This document shows positions 1-34,292 of a DNA stretch of 64,000 bases, piece after piece. The stretch is from Escherichia coli (GTDB lineage: Bacteria; Pseudomonadota; Gammaproteobacteria; Enterobacterales; Enterobacteriaceae). The notes under the pieces were generated by a model. The model saw nothing but the letters and a program-made list of their open reading frames with translations, had not been told where the DNA came from and ran no database searches. Each line of letters begins with the position of its first letter. The first letter of the stretch is position 1. A program made the translations under genes and the position numbers. Where the stretch lies: NCBI RefSeq assembly GCF_030384885.1, contig NZ_CP128613.1; one strand, written 5' to 3'.

Positions 1-12
1 ACATTAGTCACA

Positions 13-828: not shown

Positions 829-1207
829 AAGGTAATGCCGATCTATGCTGAACAGGGGACATTAATACCCTGAGGTTGGTCAATCACCACAAAAAAAACC
901 TTTGAATCAAAGCAATACTCACCGAATAATAAGGCAACCTGAACTTAAATCCCCGTTAACTGGCATACATTATTATGACTTGCACTGATGTAATTAGCTA
1001 AATATTATCGTGATTTGACTAAATAGCAAAAATGATAGCTATCAAAAATAGCTCATATACTTTGTTTCCCGCTGCCGTAGAATAGATGGTCCTTCCATGT
1101 TTCAAGCATTTATTCAAAAAAAAGGGGGCTCGACTGTCTTACGATAAACAGAGAGGGATTGTAAAGTCGAGTGCCCCTAATGGAGCACTCTATAAAAAAA
1201 TCAACAA

Positions 1208-5281: not shown

Positions 5282-5286
5282 CCGCC

Positions 5287-5535
5287 ATGGCAGCTAATAT
5301 GCTGGGTGTTGACGTCATTAATCTCGCTAATGAAGGTTGTTTGTGCCTGTTTGTTGAACCTGAGTATGCTCAGAAGGTACTACATTTGCTGCAGGAGCAT
5401 CCTGTCGGCAAGCACGCGACAATTATCGGCGAGATCACCGCTGTCTCGGGTACTGAAGTCTATATGATTGAAGCTGATGGAACACACACAGAAGTCGAGG
5501 AATTATATGGCGCAGAATTACCCAGACTCTGTTGA
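5287..5535 (+). pseudogene. hypE-like fragment (last ~80 codons of a HypE-type carbamoyl dehydratase).
   Basis: By eye the 82-aa ORF matches the extreme C terminus of HypE, including the terminal ...AELPRLC (HypE ends in PRIC with the modified Cys). An in-frame stop lies at 5269-5271 and nothing HypE-like is upstream. Its stop overlaps the hypF-like start. Confidence 0.65.
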
Positions 5536-7885: not shown

Positions 7886-8618
7886 TTCTGCGAACCGTAT
7901 TGCCGCTGTTTTATTCGATATGGATGGTGTCCTTATTGATTCCAATGCGGTGATTGAGCGCGGCTGGGCTGAAGGCGCACAGATGTTTGGCAAGACGCTA
8001 ACGGAAGAGGATATCGTCAGGCATATTCACGGACAGCCCGGCCCGCATACCATTCGCGCCCTGTTCAGCGACCTTTCCCTGGAAGATCAAAAGAAGGTCC
8101 AGTCACATATCATCCACGTTGAAAATACCGCTGATTACGACCCGATCCCTGGAGTTAGCGAACTTATCCAGGCGTTGCATAAGGCTGGCATCAGTGTGGG
8201 GATTGTCACTAGCGGCTGGCGGTCGAAAATCGATCGTATTATGGAGATGCTGCAAATCACGCCCTGTATTTCAGTGATTGTCGAACGTGATGATGTCGTG
8301 CGCGGCAAGCCTTATCCCGATCCTTATCTGCTTGCCGCAGAGCGGTTTCATCTTGCACCGTCCAGAACACTGGTCTTTGAGGATTCAAGAAGCGGCGTAA
8401 CATCTGCTGTTACAGCAGGCGCAATTTGTGTTGGCATCGGTACAGACAGTCTGAAAGAGTGCGGTGCCGTGCTTGCAATTACAGATTTTCGTAATGTGAA
8501 AATCACCTCACAGACAGGCGAAAAAGTAGTGATTGCCTTTACTCCAGAGCACCAGATGGAGATGGAAACTCAGAGCTCTCGTAAGAAAACATCCTGTACC
8601 ACAAGAGAAGAGTGCTAA
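7878..8618 (+). CDS. HAD-superfamily hydrolase (beta-phosphoglucomutase/phosphatase-like).
   Basis: N-terminal AAVLFDMDGVLIDS (DxDG motif I), VTSG (motif II), FEDSRSGVTSAVTAGA (motif IV). The start overlaps the hypF-like stop by 8 nt. Confidence 0.75.
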   Translation: MHSSANRIAAVLFDMDGVLIDSNAVIERGWAEGAQMFGKTLTEEDIVRHIHGQPGPHTIRALFSDLSLEDQKKVQSHIIHVENTADYDPIPGVSELIQALHKAGISVGIVTSGWRSKIDRIMEMLQITPCISVIVERDDVVRGKPYPDPYLLAAERFHLAPSRTLVFEDSRSGVTSAVTAGAICVGIGTDSLKECGAVLAITDFRNVKITSQTGEKVVIAFTPEHQMEMETQSSRKKTSCTTREEC

Positions 8619-9811
8619 TGAATATCACACAGAAGGGACGCTGGGCTGTCACTATGCTATTTTTTATCAATGGCTTCGTCACCGGAGGTTGGGCTGTGCA
8701 AATTGCACAGCTTGTACCACGCTTTGGCGTGACCGACAAAGTGATCGGCCATTTAATTCTGATCTTCGGATTCGGTGCACTAACCATGATGCCCATATCA
8801 GGCATTCTGATGGAAAAGATGGGGACACAAATCGTAACGCGTATTTTTGCCCTTGCAGCCTCCCTGGCATTAATTCCGGTTGGTTTAGCCACCACCCCAT
8901 TAGTGTTGATGCCAGCGTTATTTGTTCTTGGTGCGATGATTGGTGCCATGAATGTAGCGATGAACTCGAATGCCGTGGCGGTGGAGAGATCACTCTCACA
9001 AGCGATTTTATCCTCCTGCCATTGCTTCTGGAGTATCGGCCTATTTGCGGCGGGCTCGATAGGCGGCCATCTTGTTGAACAATTTGGCTTTTTGACGCAT
9101 ATCTTTTTGATTAGTGCCGTGGCCTTAATACTGACGCTGATTATCGCTCCGGCCATTTTTAAAGACATACAGACGGTTAAATCCACCAGCAGACAGACCA
9201 CCCGGTTGCCTCGTTCTCCGGCGATTTATCTGATTGGATTGATGGCTTTTCTGGCCATGATCCCTGAATGCGCTGTTGTTGACTGGTCGTCACGCTATTT
9301 GATTAAAAATCTCAATGCAAAAACAGAAATCGCCAGCCTTGCCTTCGCCTGCTTTGCTGTAGCAATGGCCTTGTTTCGCTTTATGGGTGACGTGATCCGC
9401 AACCGCTTCGGCGCAATATTAATTATACGAGTCTCCAGCTTACTGGCAGGCGCTAGCCTATTGTTGAGCGCACTGGCACACAATCCCTGGCAGGCGATCT
9501 GCGCATTTACCTTAGCGGGAATCGGCATCGCCAACCTTGTGCCCATTGTCTTTTCCGCAGCGGGAAATCAGCCCAATATTTCCACCAACACAGGAATGAG
9601 CATTGCCACAACCATTGGGTATTTAGGCACGCTAATGGCCCCTGCGCCTATTGGCTATATTGCGGAAATAACCGGTTTTCCAGTGGTTTATTGCGGACTA
9701 GCTTTCATGTCGGGAATTATCTTTTTGCTGGCACCACTGGTTCGGGGGGCAGAAATCTCTGTACAGCGGCAGCGAGCCTCAAACAAACACCAGAATACCG
9801 GAGCGTTGTAA
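8618..9811 (+). CDS. MFS-type transporter (about 12 predicted hydrophobic segments).
   Basis: 397-aa highly hydrophobic ORF. Its ATG overlaps the HAD stop (TAATG), implying translational coupling. Confidence 0.65.
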   Translation: MNITQKGRWAVTMLFFINGFVTGGWAVQIAQLVPRFGVTDKVIGHLILIFGFGALTMMPISGILMEKMGTQIVTRIFALAASLALIPVGLATTPLVLMPALFVLGAMIGAMNVAMNSNAVAVERSLSQAILSSCHCFWSIGLFAAGSIGGHLVEQFGFLTHIFLISAVALILTLIIAPAIFKDIQTVKSTSRQTTRLPRSPAIYLIGLMAFLAMIPECAVVDWSSRYLIKNLNAKTEIASLAFACFAVAMALFRFMGDVIRNRFGAILIIRVSSLLAGASLLLSALAHNPWQAICAFTLAGIGIANLVPIVFSAAGNQPNISTNTGMSIATTIGYLGTLMAPAPIGYIAEITGFPVVYCGLAFMSGIIFLLAPLVRGAEISVQRQRASNKHQNTGAL

Positions 9812-10262
9812 TTTCTGCCTGGCAAATACTGTGAAACGCTGACGCAAATTTTACTTTCCTGCGTATTGTCATCACAGGCCGTACAGACAGTGCGCGGTCT
9901 GTTGGCGGATCTGCCTGGTATTTTGCCGATGAACTGAGGGCGTCCTGCGGGATACGTATCGCCAGGGGCGTGAAACTAATTGATGAGGTGGCGGCATGAT
10001 GCCGGCGGACTAGCATATCTGCCTTTCGCCGCCTGACATGTCCTTTGGGGCCGCTGTCAGTTCAGAGTAAAGGAGAAAAAGATCGATACCGAGGGGGGGC
10101 ACGACGCCCCGGAGACACCCCTGTTTCGTCAGACAGTCTGTACCGCGTACAGCCTGAAACTCCCTAAACCTCAACAAACTGCCACTTCGACGTGAAGGTA
10201 TCGTTCTGGCGCAGCCAAAAAGCACATGCCGGAGACTGTTTTTTAGGTTGTAGAGGGTAGTC

Positions 10263-10400
10263 ATGAGCAAATTAAGTAGTGAAATGAAGGCCCTGACGAA
10301 GAAAGCAGGCGGCAGCTTCAAAACGGTAAATGACCGTATCCATATTACAAAACGGTTCAGTGAGCATTTACGCGAACTGAACATCCAGATCCGGCGGGTA
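10263..10400 (+). pseudogene. N-terminal fragment (~46 codons) of a second, different phage-type integrase.
   Basis: MSKLSSEMKALTKKAGGSFKTVNDRIHITKRFSEHLRELNIQIR resembles the N-terminal domain of an enterobacterial integrase family I remember. Similarity is lost at about 10400, where the P4-type fragment begins on the other strand. Confidence 0.35.
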
Positions 10401-10565
10401 TGCGCCAAGACTGACTCTGGATTCTTTTCCGTTGAAACGATATTTGAGATACCAGATGCGTGAACCGCCCGGATTGACGAGCAGATACAGACCGTGAGAG
10501 TCGGAGAGTTTTACCGGACGGGAAGAGGTTTTTAACTTGCGGATTTTAGAATCGTTTAAAGACAT
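10395..10565 (-). pseudogene. P4-type tyrosine integrase, N-terminal 57-codon fragment.
   Basis: MSLNDSKIRKLKTSSRPVKLSDSHGLYLLVNPGGSRIWYLKYRFNGKESRVSLGAYP is the classic DUF4102/P4-integrase N terminus. It is adjacent to the tRNA-Asn 3' end and transcribed away from it. The rest of the gene is absent. Confidence 0.7.
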
Positions 10566-10726
10566 TTGGGGGTCACTCCAGAATCGAACCAAACTGACCC
10601 CAGATCTGACCACCAAATTATCCCGATGCGGAGAGAAAACCAGATACGCACCGGGGAGGATTTTCACGCTAACTTACTGAACCGTAAACAAATAGAGATG
10701 TACAGATAAGCATGAAAACTTGAATT

Positions 10727-10802
10727 TGGCTCCTCTGACTGGACTCGAACCAGTGACATACGGATTAACAGTCCGCCGTTCTACCGACTGAACTACAGAG
10801 GA
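10727..10802 (-). tRNA. asnT: tRNA-Asn (anticodon GUU).
   Basis: The reverse complement reads TCCTCTGTAGTTCAGTCGGTAGAACGGCGGACTGTTAATCCGTATGTCACTGGTTCGAGTCCAGTCAGAGGAGCCA. It lies between mtfA and yeeJ. Confidence 0.95.
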
Positions 10803-11793: not shown

Positions 11794-11883
11794 GGAGAGA
11801 TGCCGGAGCGGCTGAACGGACCGGTCTCGAAAACCGGAGTAGGGGCAACTCTACCGGGGGTTCAAATCCCCCTCTCTCCGCCA
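11794..11883 (+). tRNA. serU: tRNA-Ser (anticodon CGA), 90 nt with long variable arm and encoded CCA.
   Basis: GGAGAGATGCCGGAGCGGCTGAACGGACCGGTCTCGAAAACCGGAGTAGGGGCAACTCTACCGGGGGTTCAAATCCCCCTCTCTCCGCCA. The anticodon loop is CT-CGA-AA. Confidence 0.95.
11870..11883 (+). repeat. attL-type copy of the island-flanking direct repeat (3' end of serU).
   Basis: CCCTCTCTCCGCCA occurs identically at 34279-34292. Confidence 0.65.
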
Positions 11884-14216: not shown

Positions 14217-14459
14217 ATGATTGATGAATTTCATGTGATGTATATGTATAAAAAAATCCAAGCAGAAGCCGCAACCACTGACATCAAAACACTTGAACAG
14301 CTTTTGAAAAAGTTCAGGAGCGTGGTTAACGAACGTCGTGAAGAATACTATCAGGAGATTGGTGAGAAAAAAGCGCGTAAGTTGAAAATGAAAAGAGCAC
14401 AAAGATTACTTGAGAAAATGGTATGTGACCGGGTTTCGCCAGAAGATCTCATTGACTGA
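14217..14459 (+). CDS. Hypothetical small charged/coiled-coil protein (80 aa).
   Basis: ORF with AAGGAG 7 nt upstream of ATG 14217. Confidence 0.4.
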   Translation: MIDEFHVMYMYKKIQAEAATTDIKTLEQLLKKFRSVVNERREEYYQEIGEKKARKLKMKRAQRLLEKMVCDRVSPEDLID

Positions 14460-14840
14460 TAAGTGTTCAACCAAAATTTTTTAGAATGTAGTATTACGAC
14501 CAATCGCAATAACATGTGGCATTTATGTATTCAGAAATCTGCTGATATGGAGGTCAACAGTTGTCTCGTGCATCTGCAACCCCCGTGGGATAATGGTGGG
14601 TGTTAACATCTGATTATCAAGAGAATGAGCATTCCCGAAGAAAACATAGAGTCTTTAAACGCGGTTTCGTTTGGTCATTGATGAAGATCTTCACGGGTAT
14701 GGCAGCCTATTTGTTTGTGAAAGAAAACATTATTTTTCAAATGGTTAGTGTAAATGATGATAACACGTCATGTGATCATAACTTATTGATCTTCTAGTTT
14801 TTTTGTGCATAATCCATAATATGAGTACTTAGTGGAACTT

Positions 14841-16682
14841 ATGATGGATTTTTTATATCAGGAATTAGCAAAAGCAGGGATAGCACTTTCTGTCAAAGAG
14901 CTTTTCACTCGCGTGGTATCTGCATGGGATAAAAAAAATTTAAGTGGGAAGCAACTTGTTAGAGAGTTGACTGGTTCAGAGGTATATCTGAACTATCTTG
15001 AGAAACATGTAGCAAGAGTGGTCCGACTAAGAACGATCCATAGTGCTGATTATGATATTCTGCTGACTAATTTATATCATCCATTAGGTATCACATCTTT
15101 ATCTCCCGGTGCAACTGAACATAAAGTCAATGACGGCTTCTATATAGAAAATCAACATATTACTAATATCATAGGAATAGCAGGGCAAGGGAAAAGTACT
15201 ATTTTAAGAAAACTGTTCATAGAACAAATAAAGAATGGAACAAAAATACCATTTTTTATTGAATTACGTAGAACTGGAAATGATGGGATCATTAAATCTC
15301 TTGAAAATACATTAATCAATCTTGGATTATACCCGACGTCCCAAGCAATTGATGAATTGTTATTTAGTAATAAAATATCTTTAATGTTAGATGGATTTGA
15401 TGAGGTCAACTCAAAGCAAAAAGATATTTTACTAAGTGAGATATTGATGCTAAACGTAAAATATGCATTGCAAGTAATAGTTACGTCGAGACCGGGTACA
15501 ACTGTTTGCAATGAACCATCAATTGTTAATTATAAAGTCGAAAAACTTAAAGAAAAAGACATACTGGCAATTATAGAAAAACTCAATACTAACAATGGAG
15601 TTATAGACAAAGAACAATTGCCGAAAATAAAAGATACAATTAAAAATAACAAAAATCTTGTTTCTGTGATGACTTCACCTATTCTGGTAACGCTTTTTCA
15701 TGTCTGTTATCCATTCATGGATATTATCCCCAATAATACAGTAGAATTTTATTCAAATCTGTTTATGACATTATATCTTCGACATGACAAAGTTAAAAAC
15801 TTTGACCGCGAAAAATCTTCCTCTTTAAGTCATAATGAAGCATATGACTGTTTCTGTACATTATGTTTTTACTCAATTTATACGAATAATCATGAATTTA
15901 CAGAGCAGTCACTAAATGAATATACAGAAAAATCAATGAAGTTAAAGGGACGGTTTGGTGAATGCAAAGCGGAGTCATTAGCTCAGGATTTTATTAATGT
16001 AACTTGTTTAATTCAGCGAGAAGGCTTTAATAAATATATCTTTATTCATAAATCGATTCAAGAGTATCATGCAGCAGAATTTATAAAAAATATATCATCA
16101 GATCAGAAAAATAAATTTTATAGTTTTCTTGTTGAAGATATTAAAAAAAATGAATTACGATTTTCTAATGTTATAGTATTCCTTAAAGAAATAGATGTCA
16201 TAGATTGTGCTAAATTCTTAATTATTCCACTGTGCGAATATTTTGGCGTTTCAAAATGGAATGCTTTGACCCCATTGGAATACAAGGATTTATTACGTAC
16301 ATTTTTCTCCGATACCTACATTCATTTATTTAATGACATTAATGATAAAGATATAATGGGGTTCAGTTCATTATCAGGGGTTAGTGGCTGGATGCAATTA
16401 TTAGATATCAGCGGCAATAATGATTTATATACGCCTGTGTTTGAAGTGTTAATAGATGAATCATTGTCAAGTGCGAATTTTAAAGATGTTGTAACCAGTC
16501 AAGATCGGCAAATGGTAAAAGTTTCATTTATGAAGGCAATAATACAATTAGGGATTGAAGACAAAATAGTTGAAGTGTTTATCAAAAATATTAAGAAAAT
16601 ACATAACGAAGTATATTGTGAAGCCATTAATAAAGTAAATAACGAGGATGTTAGTATTAAGGAGTTCTTTGATCTGATTTAA
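14841..16682 (+). CDS. NACHT-type STAND P-loop NTPase (bacterial NLR-like; candidate antiphage sensor).
   Basis: Walker A is IIGIAGQGKSTILRKL. Walker B is ISLMLDGFDEV. The NACHT-typical VIVTSRPG follows about 30 aa later. A C-terminal region of about 300 aa has no recognisable domain. The gene is very AT-rich. Confidence 0.7.
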   Translation: MMDFLYQELAKAGIALSVKELFTRVVSAWDKKNLSGKQLVRELTGSEVYLNYLEKHVARVVRLRTIHSADYDILLTNLYHPLGITSLSPGATEHKVNDGFYIENQHITNIIGIAGQGKSTILRKLFIEQIKNGTKIPFFIELRRTGNDGIIKSLENTLINLGLYPTSQAIDELLFSNKISLMLDGFDEVNSKQKDILLSEILMLNVKYALQVIVTSRPGTTVCNEPSIVNYKVEKLKEKDILAIIEKLNTNNGVIDKEQLPKIKDTIKNNKNLVSVMTSPILVTLFHVCYPFMDIIPNNTVEFYSNLFMTLYLRHDKVKNFDREKSSSLSHNEAYDCFCTLCFYSIYTNNHEFTEQSLNEYTEKSMKLKGRFGECKAESLAQDFINVTCLIQREGFNKYIFIHKSIQEYHAAEFIKNISSDQKNKFYSFLVEDIKKNELRFSNVIVFLKEIDVIDCAKFLIIPLCEYFGVSKWNALTPLEYKDLLRTFFSDTYIHLFNDINDKDIMGFSSLSGVSGWMQLLDISGNNDLYTPVFEVLIDESLSSANFKDVVTSQDRQMVKVSFMKAIIQLGIEDKIVEVFIKNIKKIHNEVYCEAINKVNNEDVSIKEFFDLI

Positions 16683-16893
16683 TATTTGAAATATGTTTTA
16701 ATTAAGTTGATCTGTTTTTATCTGGTTAACTATACAGAAATATCAAGGCACTATTACTTGGCAACAACCCATATAAAAAGGTATGTCCGTAATAAGATTT
16801 GAAAGAGTATTAATAGATTAATATGTATAATATTATTTTGTAACGAGGCTGACATAGTGAGAACAGGCAACCTCGGATCGTATACATAAAATT

Positions 16894-17934: not shown

Positions 17935-17997
17935 AAGAATACCTCGTTAATAAATGATGGATATATTTATATTACGAGATATGGTGTTAGTGTCAAA

Positions 17998-18045
17998 TTA
18001 GCTCTTTAGCTCTTTAGCTCTTTAGCTCTTTAGCTCTTTAGCTCT
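17998..18045. repeat. Perfect tandem array, 6 x 8 bp (TTAGCTCT).
   Basis: Read directly: TTAGCTCT repeated six times without mismatch, between the RepL-like gene stop (18127) and the 159-aa gene start (17934). Confidence 0.95.
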
Positions 18046-18126
18046 GTTTCTCTCTTGGTAAGAAAATCCCTTTAGTGTAATAGGAGGTTATTACGGAGAT
18101 ATTTTTGCCTGTTTTTCCGCTGGTAA

Positions 18127-20385: not shown

Positions 20386-21432
20386 ATGAGCAATGGAAGG
20401 TAAGTTAATTTTTGTTCCGATGCAATACTACGGTTTCAATCCAATTACGATGAAACCGCTGCCGTTCCATTGCTATCCATCCAGAACGTCATAGCCAATA
20501 CCGATCCGTTCTTTCTTCTCCGGTTCTTCCACCATACCGTTCTGATTGAAGAAGGAACAACGCTGGCAAGTATCTTTCTGGCAATAGAACCATGGAAGGC
20601 TTTGTTAGCAGCTTATCTGGACAGAGATGTTGGTGCTTATATAGATGAGGTAAGAAAACCGTCCGGGCCAACGGCATGGGATATTGAATGGATCGGAATT
20701 GACCGTCGAAGTTCGGTTTATCGCGCTTACAAGCGTCAGGATATGGAAGAAGGGGAGGATTTTTCGACCTATTTTAATCGCGAGCGCTTCCCGACTGATG
20801 AGCTTGACATAGAAAGTAGCTGTGATGCTTCCGGCTTTATCAAAGGAGATAAAGAACGCTGGAGTATCAGCGGCGATATTCAACAAATTAAAAATCTTCC
20901 TGTAATCCTCTATAGCAAACAGACATTAATGACTTCACCGAAAGACGGTTTGCTGAAGAAAAACGTATCGGGTGTGAAGAGTTCCAAGCACAGTTGCTTT
21001 GTTTATGGCGATACCTCGTTTTCTTTTAGAGAGGTTATGGAAGCCATCTTCATTAGTAGGCTGTTCTTCTATGCACCAAAAGACGCAGCCAGCAGCCTTG
21101 ATGAGCTGAAAGCGAGTCTGGCTGAACTGGAAGAAGAACGTGCTGAAAGCACAAATACGGAGTCGATCGGCAATGAAACAGGTGAAGAACCTACCATCGT
21201 CGTAGCCGACGGTGCTTTTGATTCGCTCGCTGCTCACATGGAGTCTGAAAAGCGGAGTGGCAATCCATTAAGAAGTTGTGCCAGCAGGAAGGAGGGCTGC
21301 CCATACGTATTGGCAACATCAAAATGGCTGAGCCTCCAGCGTTATAGCTATTTTAAGAAAAGAAATGATGTAAATATGCATCTGGTTTTTCTTTATAATG
21401 TAAGGATGTCCGATGAAACATCAGCATCGTGA
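20386..21432 (+). pseudogene. Hypothetical gene interrupted by an in-frame TAA at codon 6 (or re-initiating at TTG 20470).
   Basis: ATG 20386 has a strong RBS (AGGAGAAGG) and is in the same frame as the 320-aa ORF starting at 20470. Only one stop (20401-20403) separates them. This gene is noticeably less AT-rich than its neighbours. Confidence 0.4.
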
Positions 21433-21640
21433 ATGTTATCTGGTTAATAATTTTCTTATGTAATATTATCTATGCCATCTGGCTATGTTTTCAATTGTTT
21501 TAGTTCTCGACAACTGTTTTTATATCCAGTATGATTTTACTCGTATCCGGCAGAATATTTTTAGATGCTGTTTCATGAACTCCGGTTGAAAGGTTTATTC
21601 TCTACTTTTGGGAATAATAGTTAAAATGGAGATAAGTGTA

Positions 21641-23077
21641 ATGACGTTTAGTAATGAAATTGAAGTTTTCATAAAAGATTTTGTTAAAGATCTTGAAAAT
21701 GATTGTGCTGCTATTTTTTCTGGCGCAGGAATGTCTAAAAGTCAAGGTTATGTTGATTGGAAAGAATTACTTAGCGATATAGCAGAAGAACTTAGTTTAG
21801 ACATTAATAAAGAAGACGATCTAATATCGCTTGCTCAATTTCATGTTAATGAAAAGAAAGGGGCTACAAAACTCACAAGGAAGATAATCGAAGAGTTTTC
21901 TGAGCAAGCCGAGCCATCAGAGGTTCATAATATAATTGCTCGTTTACCGATTAAGACATTTTGGACAACAAACTATGACACTTTAATTGAAGATAGTCTG
22001 CGGAAAGTTTACAAAATTGCAGATGTAAAAAGAAACATAGATGATTTAAATACAACACGACCTAAGCGAGACGCGATAGTATATAAAATGCATGGTGATA
22101 TTTCGTCCCCATCCAAGGCTATTTTATATAAAGAGCAGTATGAAAAATACTACAGAACACACGCTTCATTTATCACCGCACTTAGCGGAGATTTAATATC
22201 AAAAACCTTTCTATTCATAGGGTTTAGTTTTACCGACCCAAATCTGGATTACATTTTGAGTCGTTTGTATACTCATTCTGGGGACAAGAGGACACACTAT
22301 TGCTTTATGAAGAATGAGGCTAATAATTCCCTAGATGATGAAGAAACAGTAAATTATAAGATCAGAAAACAAAAACTGCGAATCGATGATCTCAAGAGAT
22401 TTGGTATACAAGTATTATTAATAGATGAATATTCTGACATCCCTAAAATTCTAGCTAAGATAGAGCAATCATTTAAAAAGAAAACGATATTTATTTCTGG
22501 TAGTGCAGAAAAATATGGGGATCTTGAAAGACCTAAAGCATTAGATTTTATTCACACATTAGCATATGAGATTATAAAGAATAATTATAGGATAGTGAAT
22601 GGATTTGGATGGGGCGTCGGAAGTTCTGTGATAAATGGTGCGTTGGATGCAATTTATAGTAGGCCAGATAAATTATCAGAAGAACAGCTCATTGTTAGAC
22701 CATTTCCACAAACTGTCAGTAAGGGGAAAGATATTCAAGAACTTTGGGAGGAGTATAGACAGAGAATGATTCCTCTTGGTGGTATTGCATTGTTTATTTT
22801 TGGAAATAAACAAGAGGAAAATAATGATATAGTTAATGCTAGGGGAGTATTTAGAGAGTTTGAGATTGCTGTTCAACATGGCCTTGTACCAATTCCTTTA
22901 CCCAATACCGGGTATATGTCTAAATATATATTTGAACAAATATCACAAGATCCTAAGAAATATTATGGAAGTAATGAATGGATATATAATGATTTGTCTG
23001 AGCTTACTGAAAAAGATTTTTCGGTAAAAAAAACAATAGAAGTTGTAATAAAAATCATAAACAAACTGAATAAATAA
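21641..23077 (+). CDS. thsA: Thoeris ThsA: N-terminal SIR2-like NADase domain plus C-terminal SLOG-like ligand-binding domain.
   Basis: SIR2-type motifs are IFSGAGMSKSQGYVDWKELL, FWTTNYDTLIE, IVYKMHGDIS and LFIGFSFTDPNLDYI. The C-terminal half has IFISGSAEKYG...NGFGWGVGSSVINGAL (SLOG/LOG-like). At about 478 aa it is close to my memory of the Bacillus ThsA size (roughly 475 aa). Confidence 0.85.
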   Translation: MTFSNEIEVFIKDFVKDLENDCAAIFSGAGMSKSQGYVDWKELLSDIAEELSLDINKEDDLISLAQFHVNEKKGATKLTRKIIEEFSEQAEPSEVHNIIARLPIKTFWTTNYDTLIEDSLRKVYKIADVKRNIDDLNTTRPKRDAIVYKMHGDISSPSKAILYKEQYEKYYRTHASFITALSGDLISKTFLFIGFSFTDPNLDYILSRLYTHSGDKRTHYCFMKNEANNSLDDEETVNYKIRKQKLRIDDLKRFGIQVLLIDEYSDIPKILAKIEQSFKKKTIFISGSAEKYGDLERPKALDFIHTLAYEIIKNNYRIVNGFGWGVGSSVINGALDAIYSRPDKLSEEQLIVRPFPQTVSKGKDIQELWEEYRQRMIPLGGIALFIFGNKQEENNDIVNARGVFREFEIAVQHGLVPIPLPNTGYMSKYIFEQISQDPKKYYGSNEWIYNDLSELTEKDFSVKKTIEVVIKIINKLNK

Positions 23078-23093
23078 TATATTAGGTGAAGTT

Positions 23094-23705
23094 ATGGCTC
23101 ATGAAACATTCATATCATATAAATATAGTGAAGCACAGGATTTAAGAGACAAAATTGTCAAGGCATTAGGAGATGACGCTGTTTACTATAAAGGGGAGAC
23201 ATCGGAGTCTCCTGATATAAGTAATACAACAGTAGATAATATAAAGAACAATCTTAAAAATATGATTTTCGGGACATCTGTTTTAATTGTTATTATTTCC
23301 CCGAATATGATTAAAAGTAAATGGATTGACTGGGAAATTGAATATGCATTGAAAGAATACAAGAGAGGAGGAACCACTTCCCGAACTAATGGCATTGTTG
23401 GTGTGATAATGAAGGTTAATAATAGCTATGACTGGTTAGTATCTTCTTCAATCAAGCCTGATGGATGTTCATCAAGAACTATTGATACAACTAAACTATA
23501 TGACATTATTAATAATAATAGGTTTAATTTAACTTCAGAAGATAAATATTGTTGCCCTGAGTGCAAATCATATGATCAATTGACTGGTTCTTATATTTCA
23601 TTGATAGAAGAAGACCGATTTTTAGCAGATGTATCTTCATACATTGAAAATGCCTATGAGAAATCTAAAAAATTAAGTTCCTACGATTTATATAAACAAA
23701 AATAG
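23094..23705 (+). CDS. thsB: Thoeris ThsB: TIR-domain protein.
   Basis: FISYKYSEAQDLRDKI... and ...SVLIVIISPNMIKSKWIDWEIEYAL give a TIR-like fold with the conserved Glu in WEIE. It lies 17 bp downstream of thsA on the same strand. Confidence 0.8.
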   Translation: MAHETFISYKYSEAQDLRDKIVKALGDDAVYYKGETSESPDISNTTVDNIKNNLKNMIFGTSVLIVIISPNMIKSKWIDWEIEYALKEYKRGGTTSRTNGIVGVIMKVNNSYDWLVSSSIKPDGCSSRTIDTTKLYDIINNNRFNLTSEDKYCCPECKSYDQLTGSYISLIEEDRFLADVSSYIENAYEKSKKLSSYDLYKQK

Positions 23706-23720
23706 ATGATAACGGAAAAG

Positions 23721-23740
23721 GGCCACAATTATTTGTGGCC
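23721..23740. terminator. Hairpin between the convergent thsB and lipoprotein genes (probable bidirectional terminator).
   Basis: GGCCACAA-TTAT-TTGTGGCC, a perfect 8-bp stem flanked by A/T-rich sequence. Confidence 0.5.
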
Positions 23741-23754
23741 TATATATACACATA

Positions 23755-25600: not shown

Positions 25601-25695
25601 AAGGATGCTGGATCGTTAAATGCCCCTGCTACGCTGTGGAAAGTGACAGAAGGGGCATGAATTGTATTTCATTTAATGTAGTGAATGATATTTTA

Positions 25696-26268
25696 TTATA
25701 TCGATTTGTTAGATACTTTCATCAATTTCTCTTGAATTTTTCTTATTCTTTCAAGTTCTTCAACAATGGGATTTTTCTCGCCTTCACTTTGCATGAAAGG
25801 GCTTAAGTCTATATTGTTTTTTTCAACAACTTCTTTATTCATATAACTGTACGTTGCGGTTATTGTAAATTGTTGTGGTAACGGATTTTTCGATTCTCCA
25901 AAAATAACCCAACCTTGACCAAGGGCGAAGAATAACTCTTGATTGGGCGCTAAGCTATCAATAGTCGATGTAAAAATACTTGTTTCTTTTAGGTTTTTAG
26001 TTGGCTCATCGAACTGATAAAAATCCTTATCTAATTCTAATTTTACATTCAGGGCTGGTGTCTTACCGCTATTATAAATTTTCAGGTATAGGAATTGCGA
26101 GTGAGGTCTTACCATTGGCTGGATTATTATATAAGGACGAGACATTGCCTCGGTTTGCTCATTCATTATCTGAGCTGTTCGTTCGCTTATTCTCGACATC
26201 TTGTATGTCAAAAATGCATAAATTCCTGTAATGATAACAAGAATTGCTGTAAGTATTTCCATTGTCAT
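25696..26268 (-). CDS. N-terminally membrane-anchored protein, function unknown (190 aa).
   Basis: TM segment ILTAILVIITGIYAFLTY. It is the last gene of a same-strand run: mobA, then the 164-aa gene, then this gene. Confidence 0.45.
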   Translation of the reverse strand: MTMEILTAILVIITGIYAFLTYKMSRISERTAQIMNEQTEAMSRPYIIIQPMVRPHSQFLYLKIYNSGKTPALNVKLELDKDFYQFDEPTKNLKETSIFTSTIDSLAPNQELFFALGQGWVIFGESKNPLPQQFTITATYSYMNKEVVEKNNIDLSPFMQSEGEKNPIVEELERIRKIQEKLMKVSNKSI

Positions 26269-26314
26269 GATTAACTCCTAAGTATAATGATTCATACCAG
26301 TAAGGTATAATATT

Positions 26315-26809
26315 TTAACTATTATTGCATTTTTTTCTGTTGAATAGTTGATTATATCCAAGTTCCATTTCTTCAATAAAATCTTCATTAAATGTTGGAA
26401 ATCCACACGCCAGTGGTTCTTTCCCTCGAATTTTGAATAAGTTATAAAGATAACTACTTTCTTTATATGCGACATGAATGGCAGGATATGGCCTATTTTT
26501 TATAATCTTATTGTTTAGTTCCTTATCATTGATAATGTTATATTGATCCCCCGTTATATCAACTACAATATTATCTATCTCAAGCCAGTAATGGGTTATT
26601 TGACTATTTTTTCCGGTAGTTGCGCTAACTCCTTTTAGCTCACATTCAGGCCATAGGGTCAGAAAATGGTAAGAAAGAAGCATTGAGGTAAGCTTACAAC
26701 TCATAACAGGAAAACAGTCTATAACAAGACTGGTGTTCTTTTTATCACAACTTTCAATTAATCTACGAAGCTTAACTGCTTCTTCTTTTATTTCGATAAT
26801 GGTTGGCAA
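26315..26809 (-). CDS. Putative transglutaminase-like / papain-fold cysteine peptidase-like protein (164 aa).
   Basis: The spacing of C (VMSCKLTSMLL), H (ITHYWLEI) and D (VVDITGDQ) matches the Cys-His-Asp arrangement of transglutaminase-like cores as I remember them. Inference only. Confidence 0.4.
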   Translation of the reverse strand: MPTIIEIKEEAVKLRRLIESCDKKNTSLVIDCFPVMSCKLTSMLLSYHFLTLWPECELKGVSATTGKNSQITHYWLEIDNIVVDITGDQYNIINDKELNNKIIKNRPYPAIHVAYKESSYLYNLFKIRGKEPLACGFPTFNEDFIEEMELGYNQLFNRKKCNNS

Positions 26810-26887
26810 GATCAGCTCCCTAACTACATGATGTGCCGAGCATTTAATATATACGATACATAGGTCATTAAAAAGTATGTTCTAAAT

Positions 26888-28369
26888 TTAGTGTTTCTTA
26901 TGGCTCGGTGGACTCAGTTTTGGCGCGCTTCCTTGCCTCATGTGTTCTGGTGGCATTGAAGGTGTGAGATTTATGCTTCTATTAACTTCCGGCTGTTCCT
27001 GATTAGGACGGCTTGGTAAACGTTTGATTTCATCAGGTGTTAATTTATAGTCACCATTGTTAAATTTGGTACGTTTTTCAAACTCCGAGCGTGGAACATT
27101 GACACCCAGCACTTCATCATAGACATAGTTCTCTGCGATACGCTTATCATGGTCAGCATCAATGGTATCGGGTTTCCTTCTGGCCCATACAAATCTCTCT
27201 TTGAAGAAGCCCACCACAAGCAGTGTGAAACGCTTAAACAAACCATTTTGTCGTGGCTTAGTCTGTTTCCTACTTCTCATCGGAGCACGGTTTATCGCTC
27301 TGGTGTTTCGAGAAGAAGGGGTTTCCAGTTTAGTGGATGCAGTTGGTTCAGGAACAATCAGAACGGGAGATTTCTTCCCTGAAATACTTACTTTACTGAC
27401 CTTATTGGGATCACGGTAAGATTTTGCTGCTGGTCTTCTGCTTGTGGCGTGTGTCTTCATAACAGGCTGCTGTTCTACTGTTGCCGGGTAGTCAGGGATA
27501 ACGATTTCTTCGGGTTCAGCAAGATGTGTAATCGTAAAGCTTCTGACATCAACCACGATCTCCAGTGGTAGCTCACTGAATGTGGTGTAGACCTTTTTGG
27601 CCTCTTCAATTTGCTGATCGCGTTGAGCTTGTTCAGTAGCTCGCTGTTCCTGAGACTCGGTGTCATTCCATTTAGCACGATGAACACGCTGCATTGCCGG
27701 GCGGTTAGTTTCTGTTGCTTTGGCAAGCCAGAATGCTTTCTCTTCAGCGCTGAATGCTTCTTCTGCCTGAGCAAGGGCATCAGCACATTGCGTCCTGAGA
27801 GAACGGTGATCGATACGTTCTTCACTGCCTGCGGCTTCAAGGTAGCTGTTTGACATCGTGGCCCACGACTCACGCCATTGGATCATTATCTTCTTATCAT
27901 TCCAGCTTCTTTCTTTTTTACCGAAGCCTTCGGGACCAATGGTTTTCAGGGTTAACATGACGTGAGCATGGGGATTCTTACCATCTAAATCGTGGAATGC
28001 GATATCAGCTATCATTCCTTTCTCAACAAAGTTCTTCTGGCAGTATTCGGCAACCAATTTTTTCTTGTCATCATTACTGAGTTCTACGGGAATAGCGACA
28101 TCAAAATAACGGGCTGTTTGACCATTGTTCTGGCGTTCCACTCTTTCAACTTCATTCCATAGTGCTGAGGAGCTTTCAACAATATGAGCAGGTGCGGAAA
28201 CGGGCGCTAATATAATATGACCATGAAGATCTCTTCTGCGTCTGAAATCAAATGTTTCGCCAATGCGATTATCTATAATACGTGTACGGGCATGGTAGGC
28301 AGCTTTCGCAACGGAAGTCATGCCTTCGCTTCGTTTCACAATTTTAAAATCCAGATGAAAAATCGCCAT
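26888..28369 (-). CDS. mobA: MobA/MobL-family (MOBQ-type) relaxase.
   Basis: MAIFHLDFKIVKRSEGMTSVAKAAYHAR carries the catalytic Tyr region, cf. RSF1010 MobA MAIYHLTAK. ARYFDVAIPVELS and FHDLDGKNPHAHVMLT give the 3-His motif. Confidence 0.85.
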   Translation of the reverse strand: MAIFHLDFKIVKRSEGMTSVAKAAYHARTRIIDNRIGETFDFRRRRDLHGHIILAPVSAPAHIVESSSALWNEVERVERQNNGQTARYFDVAIPVELSNDDKKKLVAEYCQKNFVEKGMIADIAFHDLDGKNPHAHVMLTLKTIGPEGFGKKERSWNDKKIMIQWRESWATMSNSYLEAAGSEERIDHRSLRTQCADALAQAEEAFSAEEKAFWLAKATETNRPAMQRVHRAKWNDTESQEQRATEQAQRDQQIEEAKKVYTTFSELPLEIVVDVRSFTITHLAEPEEIVIPDYPATVEQQPVMKTHATSRRPAAKSYRDPNKVSKVSISGKKSPVLIVPEPTASTKLETPSSRNTRAINRAPMRSRKQTKPRQNGLFKRFTLLVVGFFKERFVWARRKPDTIDADHDKRIAENYVYDEVLGVNVPRSEFEKRTKFNNGDYKLTPDEIKRLPSRPNQEQPEVNRSINLTPSMPPEHMRQGSAPKLSPPSHKKH

Positions 28370-30322: not shown

Positions 30323-31759
30323 ATGATAAAGAAAAAAGGATTTACCTTACTGGAAGTCAGTATTGTTTTAGGTATTGGAACGCTTATCGTTTTTATGAAG
30401 TTTCAGGATATGAGAAACGATCAGGAAGCAGTATTGGCTGATAATGTCGGAACACAGATTAAACAGCTTGGTGAAGCAGTTAACCGCTATATCAGTATTC
30501 GCTATGACAAGATTTCCACACTGTCATCATCTAATAATCAAAGCAGCGATCCGGGGCCAAGAACCTGTTCGGCTGCTGGTTGCGAAATCACTTACCAGAC
30601 GTTAATTAATGAAGGTCTGTTGCCTGTAGGCTATACAGGAACTAACGCGCAAAAAGCATCCTACAAGATTGTGTTAAAACGTTCAGGAACAGCGCCGGAT
30701 TACGTCATTAATGGCCTTATAACAACCGCCAGCCCGTGGGAAGAAGGTGGTCGTATTCGTTATGACCTGTTAGGTAAAGCGGTTCAGGCGGCTGGTGTTG
30801 ATGGTGGGATGAGCAGAAACACCAAGATAGCTTCCGGCTATGGTGGTCAGTGGAGTGAGAACTCTAATAGCTACAGCAATATCACGGGTGGTGGATTGCT
30901 GGCTTACCGCGTGGGGTATAACTCTTCAATGTATTCTGTTTATCTGCGTCGTGATGGAACGTTGCCAATGACGGGTGATCTGAATCTTGGTGGGAAGAGC
31001 ATCAAAAACATCAAAGATATTACTGCATCAGGGACAACAACAACCGGGGCACTTAAGACAACGGGTAATGCGTCTGTTGCATCAGATCTGACTGTGGGTG
31101 GAACCTCGACCCTTAATGGTCCTGTAAATATCAACAACAACCTCAAGGTAAAATCCGATACCTATCTGAACACGCTATCAACAACAGGTCTGGCGAAGTT
31201 TGGTAGCCGTATTGCGACGAACGGACTTAATCCAAACGATTTGCCTGCTGGCTGGGCTGGCGGTGTTCGCACCTATGATTTGTATGCGTCGGGGACTGTT
31301 GGTGTTGGAACCGGTAAAACAGTTAAAGCTTACATGAACAATGCGGGTAATATTTATGCGTCAGGTAATCTTACCGCCGGGACGATAAAATCCAACGGAA
31401 CAATTGAATCAACAGGCAGAATCAAAGCAGGTGAATATCTCCACCTGAATGGTCAGGCAACGTTGAATGCGAAATGTACGCCTAATGGTCTGGTGGGGCG
31501 AGATAGTGTGGGGAAAATATTATCATGTGTCAGTGGAAAGTGGTCTGATCTTACACCCGCAGCAGCGTCAGGTATCTATGTTCGTTATTATAATAGCATC
31601 CAGTGGTCATGTCCTGTGCCTAACCGAGCAACCGGAGGCTGTTCATGTTCGACAGGTCTTAAAAGTATCATCATCAATACAGATTCAACTGAAACGTGTT
31701 CAGGAGTTAAAAACACGCACTGTAGAACATCGACAAAATACTTTTATGCTTGTGTTTAA
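30323..31759 (+). CDS. pilV: PilV-like type IVb minor pilin / tip adhesin (shufflon-type protein, but with a fixed C terminus here).
   Basis: MIKKKG|[18 protein letters not shown] is a prepilin N terminus. It is 478 aa with a Cys-rich C-terminal region and lies immediately after pilS, as in R64-type pil operons. Confidence 0.7.
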
Positions 31760-31921
31760 ATTGGATTTTCAATAAATGATATATTATTTAATAAATGTCT
31801 TTTAAAGATATTCACTTCAATGAAGTATCTGATTGCCCATATATGGGGAGTGGTTTACAGCCCAATGGGTTGATTCTGTCACCCCAACTTTGCAAATGTT
31901 GAAGGAGTATTCTATCGAGAA

Positions 31922-31937
31922 AGGGCCGTGAGGCCCT
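31922..31937. terminator. Hairpin between the convergent pilV and TIR-like genes.
   Basis: AGGGCC-GTGA-GGCCCT followed by TTGTTTC. Confidence 0.5.
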
Positions 31938-31966
31938 TTGTTTCTGAGAATTATCTTGGATTTTGT

Positions 31967-32797
31967 CTAAATTATATTATTCATATCTATTGAATATCCT
32001 GCCTCTTTTAATTCTCTTGCTAAACGCATTTTCCACCCTTCATTAGAGTCTATTTTTTCATACGTAATACCAAGAGCATCAGTTGGAATTTCGATATCTC
32101 CCTTTATGAGAACCATTGTTTTTTCTCTACCTAACAATGCGGTAAAATATCCAAGTTCGAGAATGACATTCTGACGGGCTCGAAGGCTTTTATTTTGCTC
32201 ATTGTTAATCGGGTATCCATAATCATCGGGAGTCATCAAGATTACTGCAAAACCCGCTCTTTTTGCAAACTCCTGAAACTTTTCAATTATGGTCATTCCT
32301 TTGTTTATTTGCTCTTGTAAAATGACGGGTTCAACGCCCAGTTTTTCTAGAAATCTCGCAACTGAATGTTTTGTGCCTTCATCATGACCATGAACTAAAA
32401 AAACTGAATTACTTTCAGGTAATTCGGTTTTTAATTCTGATTCATCAAATTTTTCGGCAGTGAATACACCTTCAGTTCCAATGCTAGATCTCCATTTACC
32501 TCTTAATTTATTATTATTGACTAAGCTACAAATTACCGTAACTTTCCCTAACATAACCATCGGGTTTTTATTTCCGGGAGTTAGTTCAATAAACAGGTTT
32601 TCGCTTATTTTTCCTGAAATACTGTATTCATATGCTCCAAGTGCAAGTTCATGTATCTTCGCTGAACCGCTTACATTATTACCGTCTACATTTAGAGTAA
32701 AACTAATCCCACCTTGGTTGGTTCCGGAGATATCACCAGTCCAATAGCCTGAATATACATCATTTAGCATATAACTCCCCTCGCGATAATATTCCAT
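31967..32797 (-). CDS. TIR-like nucleotide-binding/NADase-type protein of the CAP12/PycTIR kind, with an unrecognised ~130-aa N-terminal domain.
   Basis: The C-terminal half (VFLVHGHDEGTKHSVARFLEKLGVEPVILQEQINKGMTIIEKFQEFAKRAGFAVILMTPDD...RARQNVILELGYFTALLGREKTMVLIKGDIEIPTDALGITY) matches the remembered consensus of the TIR-like effector domain seen in CBASS Cap12 and Pycsar PycTIR. Confidence 0.65.
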   Translation of the reverse strand: MEYYREGSYMLNDVYSGYWTGDISGTNQGGISFTLNVDGNNVSGSAKIHELALGAYEYSISGKISENLFIELTPGNKNPMVMLGKVTVICSLVNNNKLRGKWRSSIGTEGVFTAEKFDESELKTELPESNSVFLVHGHDEGTKHSVARFLEKLGVEPVILQEQINKGMTIIEKFQEFAKRAGFAVILMTPDDYGYPINNEQNKSLRARQNVILELGYFTALLGREKTMVLIKGDIEIPTDALGITYEKIDSNEGWKMRLARELKEAGYSIDMNNII

Positions 32798-32896
32798 GTG
32801 AATGTTTTATTATTGCAACATACGTCGGATCGTAGCGTAATTATCAATTTAGTATACATTCGAAAAAACGTTTAGCCTTCAACCTCCATTATTTCA

Positions 32897-34114
32897 CTAT
32901 TTACAGTAATCAGTCCACTCATCCATCAGTGCCACCCGCTTAGGCCATAACGTCCCACGTTGATACGCAGCCTCTGCCTTATCTGCCAACTGGTGAGCTA
33001 ACGCATGTTCAATTACTTCACGCGGGTAGTTGGTCGTTTCACCAGCCCAATCACGGAATGTCGATCTAAAACCATGCTGCGTTAAATCTGTGTATCCCAT
33101 TCGTTTTAGGACTGCCAGTAAAGCCGTATCCGAGAGTTGTCCCTTCCGAGTGGCAGGGAATACAAAATTGATACCCTTAAAGCGTGGTAAAGCCTTTAAC
33201 AGGACAACAGCAGCATCAGACAGAGGAACTCGATGCTCCTTCGCTGCTTTCATTCGGCTTGCAGGTATGGTCCACGTTTTACCTTCAAGATCGATCTCTG
33301 ACCACTCGGCACCACGAATTTCTCCTGAGCGTGCCGCGGTCAGTATGGCAAACTCAAGCGCACGAGGCGAAACGCCGCTTCGTTCACGTAGTTCTTTCAT
33401 AAAGGAGCCGATCTGGTTATAGGGAAGAGCGGCATGGTGCTTGGTGATCTGAACTTTACTTGGCTGAGGCAACAGAGGTTTCAACATACCTTTCCATGCG
33501 GCAGGATTATCACCTTCAAAGTATTCTTTGGCCTTAGCGTAATCAATCACCGTTTCAATACGTCCACGTAGACGACTGGCGGTTTCATTCTTGGTTAACC
33601 AGATAGGTTCCAGTATTGCCAGAAGATCCACTTTGGTGATTTCACTAACGGCCTTTTTGCCAATGAAAGGGTAGGCATAGGTCTCCAGTGTGGAACGCCA
33701 TTGAGCGAGATGTTTTTTGTTCTTCATCTCACTGTCTTTGACTTCCAGCACTTCTTCACAACACTCGGCAAAGGTCTTTTTCTTCCGGGCCAGTATTTCC
33801 TGCCGGGATTTTTGCTCGTGTTTTTCTTGAAGGGGATTAATACCATTACGGATTTGTTTACGTAGCTCACGCGCTTTGTCACGCGCTTCGGCTAAGGAGA
33901 CTTCCGGGTAAGGGCCAAGCCCCATATTCAAACGTCTTGGAACTGTTCTACCGAGATTGTTGATTCGGGTTCCCATAGCTACACAAAGAACCCATGCACG
34001 GGACTGATTCCGGATGCGAAGGTATAAACCATCCACACCACCTACGGCATACATACCTTCGGATTTTAATCGTGATACGACGAGTCCTGAGAGTTCCTTG
34101 GCCTTCTTTGGCAT
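32897..34114 (-). CDS. int: P4-type tyrosine integrase (DUF4102 arm-binding N terminus plus catalytic domain).
   Basis: GLYLRIRNQSRAWVL...LGPYPEVSLAEARDKARELRKQIRNGINP in the N-terminal part. The catalytic residues are in ...LTAARSGEIRGAEW..., HGFRSTFRDW and ALAHQ...AAYQRG. Confidence 0.9.
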   Translation of the reverse strand: MPKKAKELSGLVVSRLKSEGMYAVGGVDGLYLRIRNQSRAWVLCVAMGTRINNLGRTVPRRLNMGLGPYPEVSLAEARDKARELRKQIRNGINPLQEKHEQKSRQEILARKKKTFAECCEEVLEVKDSEMKNKKHLAQWRSTLETYAYPFIGKKAVSEITKVDLLAILEPIWLTKNETASRLRGRIETVIDYAKAKEYFEGDNPAAWKGMLKPLLPQPSKVQITKHHAALPYNQIGSFMKELRERSGVSPRALEFAILTAARSGEIRGAEWSEIDLEGKTWTIPASRMKAAKEHRVPLSDAAVVLLKALPRFKGINFVFPATRKGQLSDTALLAVLKRMGYTDLTQHGFRSTFRDWAGETTNYPREVIEHALAHQLADKAEAAYQRGTLWPKRVALMDEWTDYCK

Positions 34115-34278: not shown

Positions 34279-34292
34279 CCCTCTCTCCGCCA
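34279..34292 (+). repeat. attR-type direct repeat of the serU 3' end.
   Basis: CCCTCTCTCCGCCA is identical to 11870-11883. It lies 165 bp upstream of the integrase start. Confidence 0.65.

Follow-up and report, generated by a model that had tools for sequence, protein, structure and literature searches.

Two adjacent genes, thsA and thsB, occupy positions 21641 to 23705 of the stretch of DNA analysed here, which comprises 64,000 nucleotides (nt) of one strand of an Escherichia coli contig (NZ_CP128613.1, assembly GCF_030384885.1) and is referred to below as the window. An initial annotation assigned this pair to the type I Thoeris antiphage systems, which combine a SIR2-SLOG effector, ThsA, with a TIR-domain protein, ThsB. 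Every sequence-level feature that defines this type was checked and all were found to be present. That thsAB is what its sequence indicates, an intact system of this type borne as a self-contained unit by a mobilizable genomic island, has by our estimate a probability of roughly 0.88. The features of the cassette are listed below, in window coordinates, with protein lengths and positions given in amino acids (aa).

21344..23752, plus strand: thsAB cargo cassette, 2.4 kb, with backbone breakpoints at ~21343 and ~23753, including the upstream region and the downstream hairpin
21507..21535, plus strand: sigma-70-like promoter candidate, TCGACA-17-TATGAT, the best plus-strand match in the 208 nt upstream of thsA (weak evidence)
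21641..23077, plus strand: thsA, SIR2-SLOG NADase effector (PADLOC ThsA model PDLC00407, E 8.2e-203, residues 3-478)
21956..22336, plus strand: SIR2_2 domain, ThsA aa 106-232 (Pfam E 1.3e-29, above the gathering score)
22436..23065, plus strand: STALD/SLOG signal-binding domain, ThsA aa 266-475 (Pfam STALD E 6.6e-72, profile positions 1-210 of 211)
23078..23093, plus strand: thsA-thsB spacer, 16 nt, TATATTAGGTGAAGTT
23094..23705, plus strand: thsB, TIR-domain sensor/cyclase, 203 aa (matched by PADLOC ThsB, by Pfam ThsB_TIR and through an AlphaFold2 model)
23109..23408, plus strand: TIR domain, ThsB aa 6-105 (Pfam span), with the predicted catalytic E81 at 23334-23336
23409..23702, plus strand: beta-rich C-terminal extension, ThsB aa 106-203, a candidate infection-sensing domain with a fold common to BdThsB1 (9vyl)
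23720..23741, terminator-like in both directions: GC-rich hairpin, 9 bp (RNAfold -15.5 kcal/mol, z -4.1)

The thsA-thsB gene pair

Profile searches with PADLOC and Pfam assign all three of the expected domains, SIR2, SLOG and TIR, and the ThsA and ThsB models are matched over their full length. thsA extends from an ATG at 21641 to a stop codon ending at 23077 and encodes a protein of 478 aa. A mechanically compiled list of open reading frames (ORFs) contains a longer alternative with a TTG start at 21608; we have taken ATG 21641 as the start because a GGAG sequence lies 8 nt upstream of it and because the RefSeq homologues begin at this position. The SIR2 motifs reported for ThsA were both located, TTNYD at residue 109 and KMHGD at residue 149. 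The predicted catalytic residues are N111 (codon 21971-21973) and H151 (codon 22091-22093), and a phmmer comparison with the Protein Data Bank (PDB) aligns these with N112 and H152 of BcThsA, the Bacillus cereus protein. Alanine mutants of BcThsA at N112 and H152 are devoid of NADase activity and the N112A substitution abolishes defence (Ka et al., PMC7272460). The C-terminal half, which had been described as SLOG-like, matches nearly the whole of the Pfam STALD profile, the "Sir2- and TIR-associating SLOG" family. Full-length PDB matches of ThsA include an E. coli ThsA (8wc0, E 8e-191, 59% identity) and BcThsA (6lhx, E 7e-136), and ThsA also aligns end to end with 8bto (about 1e-135) and 7uxt. 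In BcThsA the signal molecule 1''-3' glycocyclic ADP-ribose (3'cADPR) is contacted by G289, S290, L326, Q359, R371, K388, G399 and E403 (Manik et al.). Seven of these eight contacts are kept in the window ThsA, as G287, S288, the Q of a conserved PFPQ motif, R373, K390, G402 and E406. NCBIfam, which holds no ThsA or ThsB model, returned for ThsA only a partial Dsr2 SIR2 match, far below the cut-off. A type II Thoeris effector was considered and rejected, ThsA being composed of SIR2 and STALD only, with no macro match in Pfam or PADLOC.

For ThsB, the initial annotation proposed a TIR fold with a conserved glutamate in a WEIE motif. This motif is found at residue 80, the protein matches Pfam ThsB_TIR (E 5.8e-12) and also TIR_2, and the PADLOC ThsB model PDLC00428 aligns over the full length (E 1.1e-85); a search of NCBIfam with ThsB gave zero matches. 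In an alignment of 28 ThsB homologues from several phyla, W77, D79, W80 and E81 are invariant and E83 is nearly so, and E81 aligns with the glutamate of the WEI or YEI sequence in 9vyl and 8wcf. W-x-x-x-E is the arrangement found in TIR NADases, and we take E81 (W77-x-x-x-E81) to occupy the position of their catalytic glutamate. An AlphaFold2 model of ThsB, built from the same 28 homologues, reached a predicted template modelling (TM) score of 0.73. When this model was submitted to Foldseek, the top match was 9vyl_A, "BdThsB1 with NAD" (TM 0.76, E 9e-12), followed by EcThsB 8WCF and then by the TIR domains of MyD88, BtTir, AbTir and BcThsB.

The C-terminal half of ThsB is a candidate infection sensor. 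It contains 18 invariant columns among the 28 homologues, compared with 40 in the TIR half. D123, C125, C154 and C157 are invariant in this set (the cysteines lie within 23466-23564), and C154 and C157 are absent from BdThsB1. Within this putative sensor, the three cysteines may constitute a site for metal binding or redox sensing.

The initial annotation described a two-gene operon. Both genes are on the plus strand and have exactly the ends given there; the gap between them, read directly from the sequence, is 16 nt rather than the 17 first given. A Shine-Dalgarno sequence, AGGTGA, is present within the spacer at 23084-23089, 4 nt ahead of the ATG of thsB, and a terminator scan detected no plus-strand terminator-like site between the genes. 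The arrangement is thus operon-like as judged from sequence. Downstream, the hairpin at 23720-23741 separates thsB from a convergent lipoprotein gene. None of 200 shuffled sequences folded as well as this hairpin, and the match returned by the terminator scan at this position is on the minus strand.

Comparison with other genomes bears on the integrity of the pair. ThsA is identical in amino acid sequence to WP_001519853.1 and ThsB differs from WP_001519852.1 by a single residue (S182L); RefSeq labels the two as "SIR2 family protein" and "TIR domain-containing protein". When thsAB was compared with the corresponding genes of strain 2016C-3878, 8 coding nucleotide differences were found, of which 7 are synonymous, a pattern that fits purifying selection on the pair, albeit in a small sample. 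The possibility that thsAB is a decayed remnant was ruled out, since the catalytic residues are intact and the substitutions mostly synonymous. The system type is already known, and the ThsA and ThsB families are captured at full length by PADLOC models dated 2023. In the literature searched, we came upon no functional work on either this ThsB subfamily or this E. coli system and no paper describing PDB 9VYL, 8WCF or BdThsB; 8WC0 is cited there merely as "E. coli ThsA". A search of a phage collection yielded no DNA-level homologue of thsAB.

The serU island and its cargo

The element that carries thsAB is a 22.4-kb integrase/MobQ mobilizable island inserted at tRNA-Ser(serU). Its principal features outside the thsAB cassette are as follows.

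11794-11883: tRNA-Ser(cga), detected with ARAGORN, adjoining mtfA
11870..11883, plus strand: attL, a 14-bp direct repeat (family D7, CCCTCTCTCCGCCA) at the 3' end of tRNA-Ser(cga)
14450-16893: variable slot with a NACHT-domain gene in the window; 2016C-3878 and ATCC 25922 have a short H-NS homologue and DUF6404 here, and MEI2O1-23 has a NACHT gene
14832-16682, plus strand: NACHT ORF, 616 aa (Pfam NACHT E 3.8e-10)
20470-21432, plus strand: ORF upstream of the cassette, 320 aa, with no Pfam, PADLOC or NCBIfam match
25601-27055: variable slot with two unannotated ORFs in the window; ATCC 25922 has a type II Thoeris system, including TcpC, here
25696-26268 and 26315-26809, both minus strand: the two adjacent ORFs of that slot, 190 and 164 aa
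26888..28369, minus strand: MobQ/MobA-MobL relaxase (Pfam MobA_MobL E 2.6e-54; the MobQ family label is from related genomes)
31544-32901: variable slot with a 276-aa CAP12/Pycsar-type TIR protein in the window; related islands have a VOC-family gene, a 606-aa hypothetical gene or a dsDNA nuclease gene here
31967-32797, minus strand: the 276-aa protein, second TIR protein of the island (Pfam CAP12-PCTIR_TIR E 2.3e-37; PADLOC PDC-S35 E 6.5e-68)
32897..34114, minus strand: tyrosine integrase (Pfam Arm-DNA-bind_3, Phage_int_M, Phage_integrase)
34279..34292, plus strand: attR, the second copy of the 14-bp repeat, which closes the island

Further island genes encode a pilin, PilV, a RepL-like protein, a 134-aa H-NS paralogue, DUF4756 and DUF4755. 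The GC content of the island is 37.7%, compared with 47-49% in its flanks, and that of thsA and thsB is 32.6% and 30.7%, respectively. The backbone is the "serU island" of B2-group strains. In K-12 and in most E. coli the serU site is empty, with the flanks adjacent and a 292-bp match spanning the junction. Of 5,426 complete E. coli genomes, 48 have the island variant that contains thsAB, always in the chromosome and at 99% identity or above; the sources of these strains are sewage, surface water, cattle, dogs and humans. These near-identical chromosomal copies, together with flanking genes that include mtfA, tRNA-Ser, zinT, DsrA and rseX, bear out the E. coli setting proposed at the outset.

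A block comparison (blastn) with three related islands defined four variable slots: the three listed above and the one that contains thsAB. In place of the thsAB cassette, ATCC 25922 has a ComEA-family gene, and other hypothetical genes are found there in MEI2O1-23. The island is thus a mobilizable carrier of interchangeable, largely defence-like cargo. It had been called a defence island anchored by thsAB; defence-like genes do occur in two further slots, and the element is more precisely described as a mobilizable serU element in which thsAB fills one of the four cargo slots.

The cargo of the other slots is of interest in its own right. The NACHT ORF has zero matches in PADLOC and NCBIfam and may be a bacterial NLR-like defence gene. 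The 276-aa TIR protein adjoins the integrase and has an N-terminal region of ~120 aa without a family assignment; PDC-S35, which it matches, is a PADLOC candidate single-gene system. No Pfam, PADLOC or NCBIfam match was obtained for either the 190-aa or the 164-aa ORF, and these are a candidate for an uncharacterised defence or toxin-antitoxin pair.

The 320-aa ORF immediately upstream of the cassette was considered as a third Thoeris component. This was ruled out because the ORF is also conserved in ATCC 25922, whose island does not contain thsAB, and for the same reason we regard it as a backbone gene. It is intact in the window and in ATCC 25922 and is annotated as frameshifted in 2016C-3878, and its final ~90 nt fall within the variable slot.

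Elsewhere on the island, the 8-bp sequence TTAGCTCT occurs six times in tandem at 17990-18053, in the interval that separates the DUF4756 and RepL-like genes; this array may be an iteron-like or origin-associated repeat. Outside the island, the left flank from 5279 to 10802 contains hypF and hypE paralogues, an MFS transporter, a HAD hydrolase and a truncated integrase fragment labelled "Arm DNA-binding domain", as well as the EFASI small RNA (10078-10207) and a tRNA-Asn (10727-10802). This segment gives the impression of another tRNA-associated island that has been reduced to a remnant. The maximal coverage of window positions 1-10700 by any complete E. coli genome is 51%.

Partner genes, the signal and alternative readings

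Flavobacterium seoulense, Cupriavidus pauculus and Pectobacterium polaris also have thsA followed by thsB, in unrelated neighbourhoods, and plasmids of several genera, among them Bacillus, Phocaeicola and Vibrio, carry SIR2 plus TIR pairs with 65-70% nucleotide identity. When one genome per species was scanned, 210 relatives of ThsB were obtained, and the best 80 of these, which are 57-70% identical to the window protein and come from many phyla, were examined for their neighbours. A SIR2-SLOG gene is present within 6 kb of thsB at 37 of the 80 loci, and at 27 of the 80 such a gene immediately precedes thsB in the same orientation (gap in tblastn under 150 nt).

Other neighbours of thsB are varied. 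At 22 of the 80 loci (L020, L024, L025, L028-L030, L032, L036, L038, L047, L051, L054, L056, L057, L060, L064, L065, L071, L073, L075-L077) a conserved protein of ~140 aa with two or three hydrophobic helices is encoded directly upstream of thsB in place of ThsA; these 22 belong to the 43 loci at which no SIR2-SLOG gene was found within the available flank. This protein carries an N-terminal motif, HLE.IQ.VI.RM..NSF..KGW. The possibility that it is a type V effector was considered; its Pfam matches are confined to DUF2270 and DUF3278 and are sub-threshold (E 0.003-0.18). Together with ThsB it probably represents a different Thoeris type that shares the TIR clade. Extra TIR genes, SLOG-only proteins and patatin-like genes are found beside a few other thsB genes. 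It has been published that a single TIR cluster can pair with type I, IV and V effectors, and the variety of partner genes around this ThsB clade agrees with that report.

At loci with both genes (L007-L086), ThsB is consistently more conserved than ThsA, with 57-70% identity to the window protein versus 42-56%, a comparison to be read with the caveat that the loci were chosen by their similarity to ThsB. A conserved sensor with a more variable effector is the reverse of the usual picture.

By analogy with the mechanism described for type I Thoeris (bioRxiv 10.64898/2025.12.03.692087, Manik et al., Ka et al., Roberts et al.), the following sequence of events may be proposed. In the uninfected cell ThsB would be inactive and ThsA would be present as an inactive oligomer, as in the characterised homologues. 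Upon infection ThsB would sense a phage cue, with the cysteine-containing C-terminal half as the candidate sensor; in staphylococcal and streptococcal Thoeris the trigger is the major capsid protein. The TIR domain would then, by means of E81, convert NAD+ to 3'cADPR, and this molecule would bind to the SLOG pocket of ThsA, formed by the seven conserved contacts given above together with W324. The ThsA oligomers would rearrange, switching on the SIR2 active site (N111 and H151), which would hydrolyse NAD+, and the resulting depletion would abort phage replication (abortive infection). On the same analogy we infer a defence function for thsAB, and the trigger, the identity of the signal, the depletion of NAD+ and the protection are likewise taken from the homologues. 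The main argument in favour of 3'cADPR as the signal is that the partner ThsA keeps the 3'cADPR pocket.

Several observations weigh against this interpretation. First, the pocket position occupied by L326 in BcThsA is W324 in the window ThsA; a tryptophan is found at this position in the solved E. coli ThsA 8wc0 as well. Second, no SIR2-SLOG gene was found at 43 of the 80 loci within the available flank, which extends up to 6 kb and at some loci ends with the contig within 1.5 kb of thsB, and the neighbours there differ from one another; the Thoeris signal can therefore not be read from ThsB alone. Third, the AlphaFold2 model of ThsB is only moderately confident, with a mean predicted local distance difference test score of 69, and BdThsB1, the closest relative with a solved structure, has an identity of just 27%. 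Finally, two points concern expression. Upstream of thsA there are 15 promoter-like matches, compared with 14.0 expected from shuffled sequence, and because these totals are equivalent we claim no promoter for thsA. Since the low-GC cassette (31-33%) shares the island with an H-NS paralogue gene, it may be silenced in laboratory conditions.

Some of these points can be accommodated by a different wiring of the system, in which this ThsB clade makes another ADP-ribose-derived signal, for instance 2'cADPR or N7-cADPR, or in which ThsA answers to something else. Close ThsB homologues (57-63% identity) are often without a nearby SIR2-SLOG gene and have varied partners instead, the published sharing of one TIR cluster among types I, IV and V points in the same direction, and so does the replacement of L326 by tryptophan. 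Such a wiring is nevertheless improbable: 7 of the 8 contacts with 3'cADPR are identical to those of BcThsA, the ThsA proteins of four species all prefer 3'cADPR (Manik et al.), and 3'cADPR is the signal of the type V effector as well, whose TIR clusters are shared with type I (bioRxiv 10.64898/2025.12.03.692087).

We consider it somewhat less probable still that thsAB, although intact, mainly serves the island, as an addiction or exclusion module directed against island loss or competing elements, or that it is silent cargo. Residence on an integrase/MobQ island of very low GC content with its own H-NS paralogues would fit such a role, as would the confinement of thsAB to one island variant in 48 of 5,426 genomes. 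On the other hand, no known Thoeris system behaves in this way, and purifying selection on both genes, together with a distribution that crosses phyla outside islands, fits phage defence that benefits the host.

Least probable is the suggestion that ThsB is a virulence factor of the Tcp type, resembling TcpC or TlpA and acting on mammalian Toll-like receptor/MyD88 signalling. In its favour are the kinship of the island with the tcpC-carrying serU island of uropathogenic E. coli (UPEC) and the fact that the TIR proteins of ROD21-like islands have been read as virulence factors in the literature. Against it, ThsB has a SIR2-SLOG effector as its close partner and its best family matches are ThsB-specific, the pair also occurs in free-living Flavobacteria, in Cupriavidus and in plant-associated Pectobacterium, the carriers come from the varied sources listed above and TcpC is itself now treated as the ThsB1 of a type II Thoeris system (PMC11204291). 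Indeed, the presence on one backbone of type I Thoeris in some strains and of type II Thoeris with TcpC in UPEC supports an anti-phage rather than an anti-host role for the TIR cargo of the serU island.

A type I Thoeris system signalling through 3'cADPR thus remains our preferred reading of thsAB. A broader and distinctly tentative proposal concerns the 203-aa ThsB clade, whose members share 57-91% identity across Pseudomonadota, Bacteroidota, Bacillota and other phyla. This clade could be effector-promiscuous, its C-terminal domain with three cysteines could sense a broadly conserved cue, and the serU island could act as a four-slot carrier with type I and type II Thoeris as alternatives. 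If this were true, the C-terminal domain of ThsB would not be a fast-evolving, phage-specific receptor.

As a discovery thsAB matters little, type I Thoeris being mechanistically well understood. It would, however, provide a type I Thoeris system native to E. coli, and the empty serU site of K-12 makes direct testing possible. Of more interest are the by-products of the analysis, namely the four-slot architecture of the serU island, the unusually strong conservation of the ThsB clade across phyla and its frequent pairing with a small membrane protein in place of ThsA. The four slots also draw attention to the uncharacterised genes at 25696-26809 as candidates for new defence functions.

Comparison with known systems

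The host element may be compared first with the ROD21-like (EARL) islands, which it resembles in size (~20-30 kb), in low GC content and in the presence of a 134-aa H-NS homologue, a relaxase, pilus genes, a lipoprotein of the "SEN1984 family" and TIR-domain cargo. These islands have been described at Asn-tRNA genes, in contrast to the window island, which is at tRNA-Ser. The resemblance to the serU island of CFT073 and ATCC 25922 is closer and includes the insertion site, the integrase, the MobQ relaxase, the pilin and PilV genes, RepL and the H-NS genes, with backbone blocks in ATCC 25922 that are 87-96% identical in nucleotide sequence to those of the window. tcpC is located in the serU island (PMC8147327), and in CFT073 the trio formed by a macro-domain gene, a TIR gene and tcpC has been characterised as a type II Thoeris system, in which TcpC is ThsB1 (PMC11204291). 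Like thsAB, this system (transmembrane-macro ThsA, TcpC/ThsB1 and ThsB2) is a TIR-signalling defence. It differs from thsAB in having a macro-transmembrane effector, in using a different class of signal and in its position, which corresponds to the slot at 25601-27055.

Among type I systems, that of B. cereus MSX-D12 (6LHX/6LHY) has the same two-gene organisation, a ThsA with SIR2 and SLOG domains, the same catalytic Asn and His and a ThsB with a single TIR domain. BcThsB (6LHY), in contrast, has no sequence match to the window ThsB and is only a weak Foldseek match (E 1e-2, rank 14). The window ThsB belongs to another subfamily, with a C-terminal extension of ~100 residues, and the genes are found on a mobilizable island in a gammaproteobacterium. 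BdThsB1 (9VYL, "cyclic ADP-D-ribose synthase TIR1", solved with NAD) has a TIR domain followed by a C-terminal extension and resembles the window ThsB over the whole protein (phmmer E 1e-17); it is unlike the 203-aa clade in being without C154 and C157. Finally, the solved E. coli proteins EcThsA (8WC0) and EcThsB (8WCF) are from the same species and have the same architecture, and 8WC0 is the closest solved ThsA. EcThsB, however, is a protein of 160 aa that belongs to a different TIR clade (sequence E 0.065, Foldseek TM 0.47). Between these two E. coli systems the effector is thus similar and the sensor paired with it different.

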